Of a stretch of DNA of 64,000 nt, positions 24,701 through 29,550 are shown piece after piece. Under the pieces are notes generated by a model that did not search any database, was not told the origin of the DNA, and worked only from the letters and a program-made list of their open reading frames with translations. The translations under genes were made by a program, and so were the position numbers. Position 1 is the first letter of the stretch. Each line of letters opens with the position of its first letter. Source of the stretch: Flaccisagitta enflata (lineage: Eukaryota). The stretch is taken from NCBI GenBank assembly GCA_965153355.1, contig OZ231126.1, positions 10,974,001-11,038,000 on the forward strand, given 5' to 3'.

Positions 24701-27700
24701 TTTCCGTAAAACAGAATCTGAAAACCAGTGATGGCGGCTATCGCCGCGAGGAAAAAAGTCGTAAGCGTTGGTCATTTTTCCCCAAGCATTTGTCTTCAGT
24801 CACTGCAATTTTTTTATATTTGTTACATCAAATCAAAAGCAATTGTATGTATTGATTGCACTGAAAATCAGAGAAAAATAGAGTTGAGCCAATTGAGATA
24901 GATGTGCTAAAGTACTCAAAATCACTCAACCAGACAACCAGCTAAGGCCCAAAATCTTAGAGAATGAAATCTGGGCCTTGGGATTGGGATTTGGGCCTTG
25001 AGGGTGGGATTTGGGCCTCAAGACTGGAGTTTGGGCTTCGAGGTTGGGATATTGGCCTCCAGGCTGAGAAATGGGCCTGGGGGGTATGTAGAAGAATGAG
25101 GAGGAGGAGGAGAAGGAGGAGAAAATTCCCCATATGTGTGAAAGCATAAGTCATCGACCCCTTTAGAGCCCCTGCCCAAAAGTGGACCAACCAACCAACC
25201 GATGGACCGACATAGCGGGGTTTAGAGTCGCGTAGCACGTGACTAAAAATCTTTAAAAAGTAAAACTCGAAAAATATTTGTTGTAGAGTATTCTGCTTGG
25301 CGCCGAATGAAAGAGAATCATCAAATTTACTTACCCTATCAATTTTGTTAGAGGGCTCAAAATGAAAACCATGTCTCTCTGCATTGTGTCAAAAAGTCAA
25401 AGACTGATTTCGACTATTTTCCCGATCATACAGATTAGGTTTTTAAAAAGGGCGCTAAAATTGTAAAGGACGGACGATGACTATTAACTACTGAAAAAAG
25501 ATATGAAGATCAAGATAATTCGCTTCACGTTGGAAGGTGGAACAAAAAAAAAATGTAAAGCAACCAAATGTCCCCTTTGCCCAGAGAGGGGGGCTGGTCG
25601 GGGATGTGGAATCAAATATACCTCTGCTTTATCAACATCAAATAACAAATGTTCTTACCAAAGACACATTGTAGAAACAACATCATCATGACCATGCCAT
25701 GTTACAAATGTTCTTACCAAAGACACATTGTAGAAACAACATCATCATGACCATGCCATGTTACAAATGTTCTTACCAAAGACACATTGTAGAAACAGCA
25801 TCATCATGATCATGTCATGTTACAAATGTTCTTATCAAAGACACATTGTAGAAACAACATCATCATGACCATGCCTTATTACAAATGTTCTTACCGAAGA
25901 CACATTGTAGAAACAGCATCATCATGACCATGTCATGTTACAAATGTTCTTACCAAAGACACATTGTAGAAACAGCATCATCATGACCATGTCATGTTAC
26001 AAATGATCTTACCAAAAACACATTGTAGAAACAACATCATCACGACCATGCCATGTTACAAATGTTCTTACCACAGACACATTGTAGAAACAGCATCATC
26101 ATGACCATGTCATGTTACAAATGATCTTACCAAAGACATATTCTAGAAACAACATCATCATGACCATGTCATGTTACAAATGTTCTTACCAAAAACACAT
26201 TGTTTGGAAAAAAGTCGAAGAATACCTTCGGCTTTTTGAGACCTACGGCGAAAATCGATTTTCCCTTTTTCTCTTGGGGAGTTTGAGGAAGTTGATGTGC
26301 TTTTCGGGCCGAATGACACTACGTATGAAATTAATAGCTAAGAAAGAGCTTAATCTCCTCTTTCAGATGACGCCAAGCAGAATTCTGTGCGATCAATAGT
26401 TTCAGAGCTATGATTTTCTGAATCTTTTTTTATTTTTTCACATTTTTCACATTTTTCCCAAAAATGAGGAATTAAGGTATTAAAGTCTATTTGAACTTCA
26501 AATTGTCCCAGAAAATGATTGTGCATGCTGGCAGCAAAGGCTCCAACTCTTTTAGTCGTAGAATCTATAAGAGGCTTTGTCCATCTGTCCGTCAGTCCAT
26601 CTGTTGGTCTGTTGGTCCATCAGTCTATCTATGACAGCGTGCCCGCGAAGCCAACATTTAGGGTATCAAAATAGGTCAAAATAGAAAACATACATCAGTG
26701 AAAATAGAAGAACAAGTGAATAAAAGTGATTGAGATAGAACATGCATGATATTTGAAAGCAAAATTTGCATCCATTTAGCAAGAGACTCAGATTCAGCTT
26801 TTATAACGGAGAAAGATTTACTGAAAATTTTTACAAATTCCTTTTTTGTCACTGACAAGGGGTTGGTCGAAATTATAAATTTGCATAGAAAATGAAAAAA
26901 TGAAAAAACAAAGAACATAGTTCTCTTACCAAATCGTTTTTAGAGAGAACTATGTTTTTGAAAATGCAAATTTTTTCTGGGTGTGGCTTTCTTATAATTT
27001 CGACCTCAGAAAATAGAAAAAAATGTCAACAAAATTTCACTAAAAATCTTCATTTTCCGTCCATTTTCCATGAGAATTGCTTATCAAAAGGCGATTTAAA
27101 GCGTAAAATATGAAAAAGACGTATATATCAAGTGTATCCAGTGACAACTTGAGCAGTGAAAACGATTGTGGTTGGATAATTAGTCCATTATTGATTCAAA
27201 AGTGGGGTGAAGCACTTCATTTTTCCCTAGCAGATCTGACGTCCTATGGTGATCATGTCAAAAGTGGAAAAACAAACATTCTCTCTATGTTTCTCTCTCT
27301 CTGTCTCATTCTCTGTCTGTCTGTCTGTCCATCTGTCTGTCCATCCATCTGTCTGTCCATCTGTTTGTCCATCCATCTGTCTGTCCGTCGTGTGTCTGTC
27401 TGTCTGTCTCTCTCTCTCTCTCTCTCTCTCTCTCTCTCTGTCTCTGTCTCTCTCTCTCTCTCTCTCTCTCTCTCTCTCTCTCTCTCTCTCTCTCTCTCTT
27501 TTTTTTTTTTTCTCTCAGCATTTACGACTTTTTTCCTACAGCGATTAGCCGCTTTTATTGATAGAAACAACATCATCATGACCATGCCATGTTACAAATG
27601 TTCTTACCAAAGACACATTGTAGAAACAGCATCCTCATGACCATGTCATGTTACAAATGTTCTTACCAAAGACACATTGTGGAAACAGCATCATCATTAC

Positions 27701-29550: not shown

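Follow-up and report, generated by a model that had tools for sequence, protein, structure and literature searches.

Why should the end of a coding exon, splice donor included, be repeated in tandem into its own intron, and what becomes of the additional donors? The question is raised by an opsin gene, here called opsin A, in a 64,000-nucleotide stretch of DNA (the window; C1:10,974,001–11,038,000 of a 794-Mb genome in 9 contigs). The window contains two opsin paralogs, both on the minus strand. Exons of the upstream paralog match 7tm_1 and rhodopsins, and the host genes combine the 7tm_1 fold family and rhodopsin best matches with a TM7 lysine, the family assignment reaching only 7tm_1. A homologue search with a single opsin exon as query, which is a weak test, returned no match. 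Exons 1–6 of opsin A lie in the window, with the same intron positions as in the upstream paralog. Its exon 2 can be joined in frame with exons 1, 3, 4, 5 and 6 and has 65% amino-acid identity to the paralogous exon (38628–38529). The two genes are arranged as follows.

39272 to about 32656, minus strand: upstream opsin paralog, complete, with 9 exons and the TM7 lysine present (frame, splice motifs, paralogy)
29473..29550, minus strand: opsin A exon 1, coding part (frame, splice motifs, paralogy)
27726..27825, minus strand: opsin A exon 2, 100 nt with AG/GT ends (frame, splice motifs, paralogy)
24447..24528, minus strand: opsin A exon 3, its acceptor being the expected partner of the true donor and of any decoy
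22125..22252, minus strand: opsin A exon 4 (frame, splice motifs, paralogy)
1127..1324, minus strand: opsin A exon 5, with an in-frame 15-bp tandem duplication (1198–1227; TRF) that is missing from the other two copies of the gene
648..784, minus strand: opsin A exon 6 (frame, splice motifs, paralogy)

Three other features of the window were recorded in passing. Intron 1 of the upstream opsin (39234–38629) has a GC donor and consists almost entirely of a 570-bp trinucleotide microsatellite. A single SRCR-domain reading frame (12815–13447, plus strand) lies in opsin A intron 4 on the opposite strand and is matched in the inverted duplicate described below. A 444-codon open frame (52452–53783, minus strand) with a weak FLYWCH match is probably part of a transposon at about 49–55 kb.

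The array at the exon 2 donor of opsin A is built from a 59-bp unit consisting of the final 45 nt of exon 2 and 14 nt of intron 2. At this period TRF reports 9.5 copies with 92% matches at 25645–26203 and 3.6 copies with 91% matches at 27557–27769. The units run head to tail, and the terminal one spans the exon–intron boundary, the exon being placed by frame, splice motifs and paralogy. The intronic units repeat the splice signal: with the true one (27725) counted, donor positions number 13, and G|GTAAGA is intact at 11 of the 12 decoys, the remaining one (25835) having AT for GT. Bases off the consensus amount to 26 of 649 (4%) among the 11 full decoys. No clear case of microhomology was seen at the array ends, and the junction test detected no array at the exon 2 donor of the upstream paralog. 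The array falls into two blocks separated by an insertion.

27557..27770, minus strand: proximal array block, made up of the unit with the true donor, both full decoys on this side (donors 27666 and 27607) and the beginning of the unit that the insertion divides
25645..26203, minus strand: distal array block, with 10 decoy donors, 26189 to 25658
about 26199..27563, no strand assigned: composite transposon-like insertion of ~1.36 kb within one 59-bp unit (dispersed copies; 4-bp direct repeat at the flanks)

The inserted segment matches dispersed copies across the surrounding 194 kb. The 4-bp direct repeat flanks the inserted element and a homologous copy alike, suggesting a fixed target site. 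Since the units on either side are equally alike, the insertion probably followed the formation of the array and would thus be the younger of the two. On read-through, a stop is met 8 codons past the exon 2 junction, within the first decoy unit, so that any decoy use yields a truncated product. The first-pass annotation had described a unit made of the exon 2 end plus intron, about 13 copies with mostly intact donors, a split by ~1.35 kb of TE-like sequence and a protein truncated by decoy use, and these claims are borne out. Insertion of additional residues in frame was considered and rejected, since 59 cannot be divided by 3 and a stop lies in the first unit.

The region is surrounded by near-identical inverted and direct duplicates, and the assembly may be imperfect there. 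Nevertheless, an array created by the assembly process itself is hardly credible. The units differ among themselves, with 0–8 pairwise differences per 59 bases. For the stretch 27590–28190, 27 contigs were found in DNA run X2 (a different sample from the best-matching run) and 8 in run X3 (another study), and contigs from both runs cross unit-to-unit junctions. One X2 contig joins a unit to the unique distal flank. Summed X2 depth is about 790–1570 on unit positions versus 152 on the unique exon, a contrast that is not to be read as a copy number. Thus, the array is real in genomic DNA, as seen in runs X2 and X3 through short contigs that cannot span it. The window stretch is also present in marine metagenome runs. 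One low-depth, unspliced contig from X13, which may be DNA, diverges 25 nt into intron 2 (window 27701) and may represent either an allele, possibly one lacking the array, or an error. In 1.82 Gb of the poly(A) run X20 (about 6% of the run), 0 reads matched 27590–28190, a stretch that covers only 3 of the 13 donors.

The first-pass annotation had also placed arrays at three further junctions in the window. All three are present, the exon 6 acceptor array being degenerate and falling below the standard threshold.

28516..29517, minus strand: second array, at the exon 1 donor of opsin A, ~9 copies with a 51/102-bp period, older (63–77% matches; TRF, junction test)
36688..37027, minus strand: third array, degenerate 67–69-bp copies at the exon 4 acceptor junction of the upstream paralog (exon 36734–36607; TRF, junction test)
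836..1020, minus strand: degenerate copies (75–78%) at the exon 6 acceptor junction of opsin A (junction test)

As the last of these passed only at a lowered score, arrays are present at 3 of the 27 window junctions at the standard threshold and at 4 at the lower one. Compared with the window's own control, 3/27 corresponds to P about 0.02, in a window that was selected for such arrays.

Within 105 kb, the 3′ half of opsin A occurs in three copies (window 8508 to just left of position 1, and G000:C1:10,868,000–10,920,000). The window copy consists of exons 4–6 only and ends after exon 6; the inverted copy contains exons 4–8 and the same-strand copy exons 5–8, 97–98% identical to the window copy. 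Exons 7–8 are found about 55 kb (inverted) and 105 kb from the window copy. The triplication may be a true duplication, a set of alternative 3′ ends or haplotype redundancy. Many other genes (kinases, P450, SNF, myosins, opsins) also occur as similar-scoring pairs 30–200 kb apart, often inverted, which points to frequent inverted duplication or to uncollapsed haplotypes. All three copies of opsin A share the old exon 6 acceptor copies; the inverted one (locus L036, G000:C1 about 10,915,080–10,915,400) has three additional units with a ~100-bp period that are missing from the other two, and the array length has therefore changed recently.

This arrangement brings up the reading that opsin A is a rearranged or decaying copy, whose junctions accumulate arrays under relaxed selection. 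The triplicated 3′ half, the window copy that stops after exon 6 and carries the 15-bp duplication in exon 5, the 0 RNA reads on exon 2 in part of one poly(A) run, and the assignment of three of the four window arrays to opsin A are all consistent with such decay. We consider it improbable, however, since all exons of opsin A are open with intact splice sites, and the same-strand set of exons 5–8 lies downstream. Differences and gaps in X2 and X3 fall in intron 1 and in the decoy units, sparing the unique part of exon 2. Moreover, arrays are also present in the complete paralog and in intact-looking genes of housekeeping families.

The latter were identified in a survey outside this cluster that covered five gene families, namely kinases, myosins, SNF transporters, P450 and opsin-like genes. 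Junctions were called with a motif score wherever exons of these families matched. A junction was scored as positive when a match extending at least 8 nt to either side of it recurred within 700 bp on the intron side. Positives numbered 8 of 231 testable junctions in set 1 (232 called), 3 of 135 in set 2 (142 called) and 3 of 78 in set 3 (83 called). The total is 14 of 444 called junctions (~3%), located in kinase, myosin, SNF and P450 genes, and 10 of them have two or more extra copies. Both donors and acceptors are affected; the copies are mostly 85–98% identical. Periods range between 31 and about 205 bp, and multiples of 3 are not preferred among the junction arrays. None of the 22 called junctions at other opsin-like loci carries copies, which, together with the arrays in unrelated gene families, indicates that the feature is not opsin-specific. 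An opsin-specific design was rejected on the same 0/22.

A separate TRF census overlooked some of the arrays detected by the junction test and was kept out of the statistics. It added two exon-overlapping 37-bp arrays in a P450 pair, which remain uncounted as no junction was called there. Individual arrays vary in form. A kinase acceptor (G000:C5:13,900,187; L069) has 14 copies of 63/69 bp with AG intact in all. One SNF transporter gene (G000:C2:6,931,545–6,932,910; L177) has three consecutive donors with their own arrays of 31, 34 and 38 bp. A myosin acceptor (L205; G000:C2:86,634,550–86,636,183) has three copies of about 205 bp, with AG changed to AA in each.

The opsin A array belongs to a named, published class, the “mirage” or junction-spanning minisatellites, which the first-pass annotation did not recognise. 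Mirages are described in parts of PMC3087553 and PMC3902484 from amphioxus Adh3, the globins BflGb6 and BflGb9, TnC and PGBD5. According to the same portions of these papers, aberrant mRNA is absent and splicing undisturbed for the Adh3, globin and TnC mirages. These accounts demonstrate both length polymorphism and normal splicing for amphioxus, whereas the opsin A array is known from DNA alone. It also differs from the amphioxus cases in its genome, its 13 units and its split by a mobile element, and in that a frequency (~3% of the junctions sampled) was determined here alongside a control. A similar organization is reported in the relevant part of PMC1557585 for a 37-bp VNTR in intron 7 of human F7, in which the pseudo-donors are functional, yet the most upstream site alone is used. 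In both F7-type arrays, as described there, and opsin A, the first unit lies across the donor, identical pseudo-donors follow, and decoy use leads to a frame shift or a stop. The exonic share of the unit is 45 of 59 nt in opsin A versus 4 of 37 in that description of F7. The same passages state that LMNB2 and PDGF use the first donor only, as F7 does, while IFI6 (6-16) and CBS use two proximal decoys as well.

We think it likely that the extra donors of the opsin A mirage minisatellite are silent passengers, and that the array represents one case of a feature of ~3% of the sampled junctions rather than an opsin device. Such an array may go back to the tandem duplication of a ~59-bp seed across the exon 2 donor, followed by enlargement through slippage or unequal exchange. 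Only the first copy is preceded by the remainder of the exon, and by geometry all others are intronic. As one copy keeps the exon and the others are intronic by construction, the direction of the array needs no mechanism; the “intron-directed” amplification of the first-pass annotation is thus no separate finding, as any tandem junction copy leaves one intact exon and places the others in the intron. A mobile element then entered one of the units. Judging from other genes (cf. human F7), exon 2 is most likely recognized by the spliceosome starting at its acceptor, with the first donor then being chosen, so that the mRNA would be normal. If a decoy were occasionally used, the transcript would gain at least 59 nt, stop included, and would probably be degraded.

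The alternative is regulated unproductive splicing, in which the decoys send opsin transcripts to nonsense-mediated decay and the length of the array tunes the output. The decoys do match the true donor, any use of them is truncating, four arrays occur within one opsin cluster, and human IFI6 and CBS employ two proximal decoys according to the part of PMC1557585 concerned. Against this, the arrays are not opsin-specific (14/444 elsewhere; 0/22 in opsin-like loci), a single site is used in most published arrays, and the donor bases of the opsin A array show no excess conservation. Specifically, the decoy GT has 1 change in the 11 full decoys versus 0.9 expected at the 4% unit-wide rate. This background rate implies that the decoy donors in the opsin A array are neither purged nor protected. 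When 15 arrays were pooled, the extended splice motif differed at 5.9% versus 8.0% elsewhere (P 0.18). Pooled decoy GT/AG bases were changed at 6 of 148 positions versus 11.9 expected (P 0.05); this slightly better preservation speaks against silent decoys, in a comparison biased by the finding of arrays through matching across the junction. Thus, we regard regulated unproductive splicing as very improbable, and adaptive tuning of opsin output by the array as unlikely.

A separate question is why such arrays exist. The first-pass annotation had offered two options, a mutational process that seeds repeats at splice junctions or selective tolerance of those duplications that leave one clean exon. 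If tolerance alone were at work, the rate should not exceed that of the control. As control, we used 8,319 intronic positions scored as the terminal repeat unit, with copies on one side only. The control is conservative, as it takes in the far ends of junction arrays and dispersed satellites. Its rates were 2.14% for any duplication, 1.39% for a nearest copy within 210 bp and 0.54% for two or more copies. For any duplication at the 444 junctions, 14 were observed versus 9.5 expected (P 0.10), which is no significant excess. With the nearest copy within 210 bp, 6.2 were expected (P 0.004; 444 junctions, cut chosen after set 1). For arrays of at least 3 units (two or more extra copies), 10 were observed versus 2.4 expected (P 0.0002; 444 junctions, cut also chosen after set 1). 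Bootstrapping over 109 segments for the first 366 junctions gave a ratio of 4.0 (95% 1.4–7.5) for multi-copy arrays and 1.4 (0.6–2.6) for any duplication. The excess was kept with complexity-, GC- or segment-matched controls for the same 366 junctions. Sets 2 and 3, which joined the analysis once the cut had been fixed, gave 4/213 versus about 1.2 expected (P about 0.03, hand calculation). Intron positions 60–150 bp from junctions showed no elevation (0/966).

We rate the junction excess of multi-copy arrays as suggestive. One possible reading is that arrays are seeded, or grow past two units, preferentially at exon–intron boundaries, through nicks, stalls or recombination there or because the exon shields the arrays from deletion; we regard it as possible but less likely than not. 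It is favored by the multi-copy count (10/444 versus 2.4 expected), by the later sets (4/213 versus about 1.2) and by the agreement of the matched controls, and by one opsin A acceptor, where old copies are common to the three copies of the gene and one of these has three further units. The 0/966 at 60–150 bp speaks against simple shielding. On the other hand, all duplications pooled give P 0.10 and a bootstrap ratio of 1.4, the multi-copy cut was picked after the first set had been seen, and 3 of the 11 first matches lie within one gene. The sample also covers only five families, with junctions called by a simple motif score. Furthermore, a constrained exon copy may be detectable for longer, perhaps raising the apparent rate up to about 2-fold, and a bootstrap ratio of at most 2 has P 0.07. 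As to the two options, seeding thus gains from multi-copy arrays ~4-fold over the intronic control, a comparison that leaves bias open, and loses from the pooled duplications at P 0.10.

A junction-biased origin concerns why arrays exist and is compatible with silent decoys. The excess of junction arrays of at least 3 units (10 versus 2.4) is not predicted by a purely neutral origin plus tolerance and counts against the preferred reading. It is conceivable, although doubtful, that a mutational or recombinational process favors tandem repeats at splice junctions, with ~1 in 40 junctions having a young array of at least 3 units, ~4 times the intronic rate.

No genome-wide enrichment test of junction repeats was found in the open literature, most subscription papers being outside our scope. 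The sections of PMC10078293 and PMC5648526 concerned contain nothing decisive on junction repeats. Part of PMC2812944 reports a count of internal tandem repeats at exon–intron boundaries in human segmental-duplication genes, which that part gives without an intronic control. Those repeats, as presented there, resemble the present ones in spanning boundaries, in belonging to recently duplicated paralogs and in varying between copies (cf. the opsin A exon 6 acceptor). They differ in altering gene structure with transcript support, whereas evidence for opsin A comes solely from genomic sequence.

Taken by itself, the opsin A locus is one more example of a published class, and the added value lies in the junction count. 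If ~3% of junctions carry copies, identical splice sites would compete at thousands of places in the genome, each a natural assay. The junction bias, if true, would give the isolated reports of mirages the form of a genome-wide bias that can be measured. Such arrays would allow tests of a preferred origin of repeats at the ends of exons and of the model in which introns are gained through tandem duplication.
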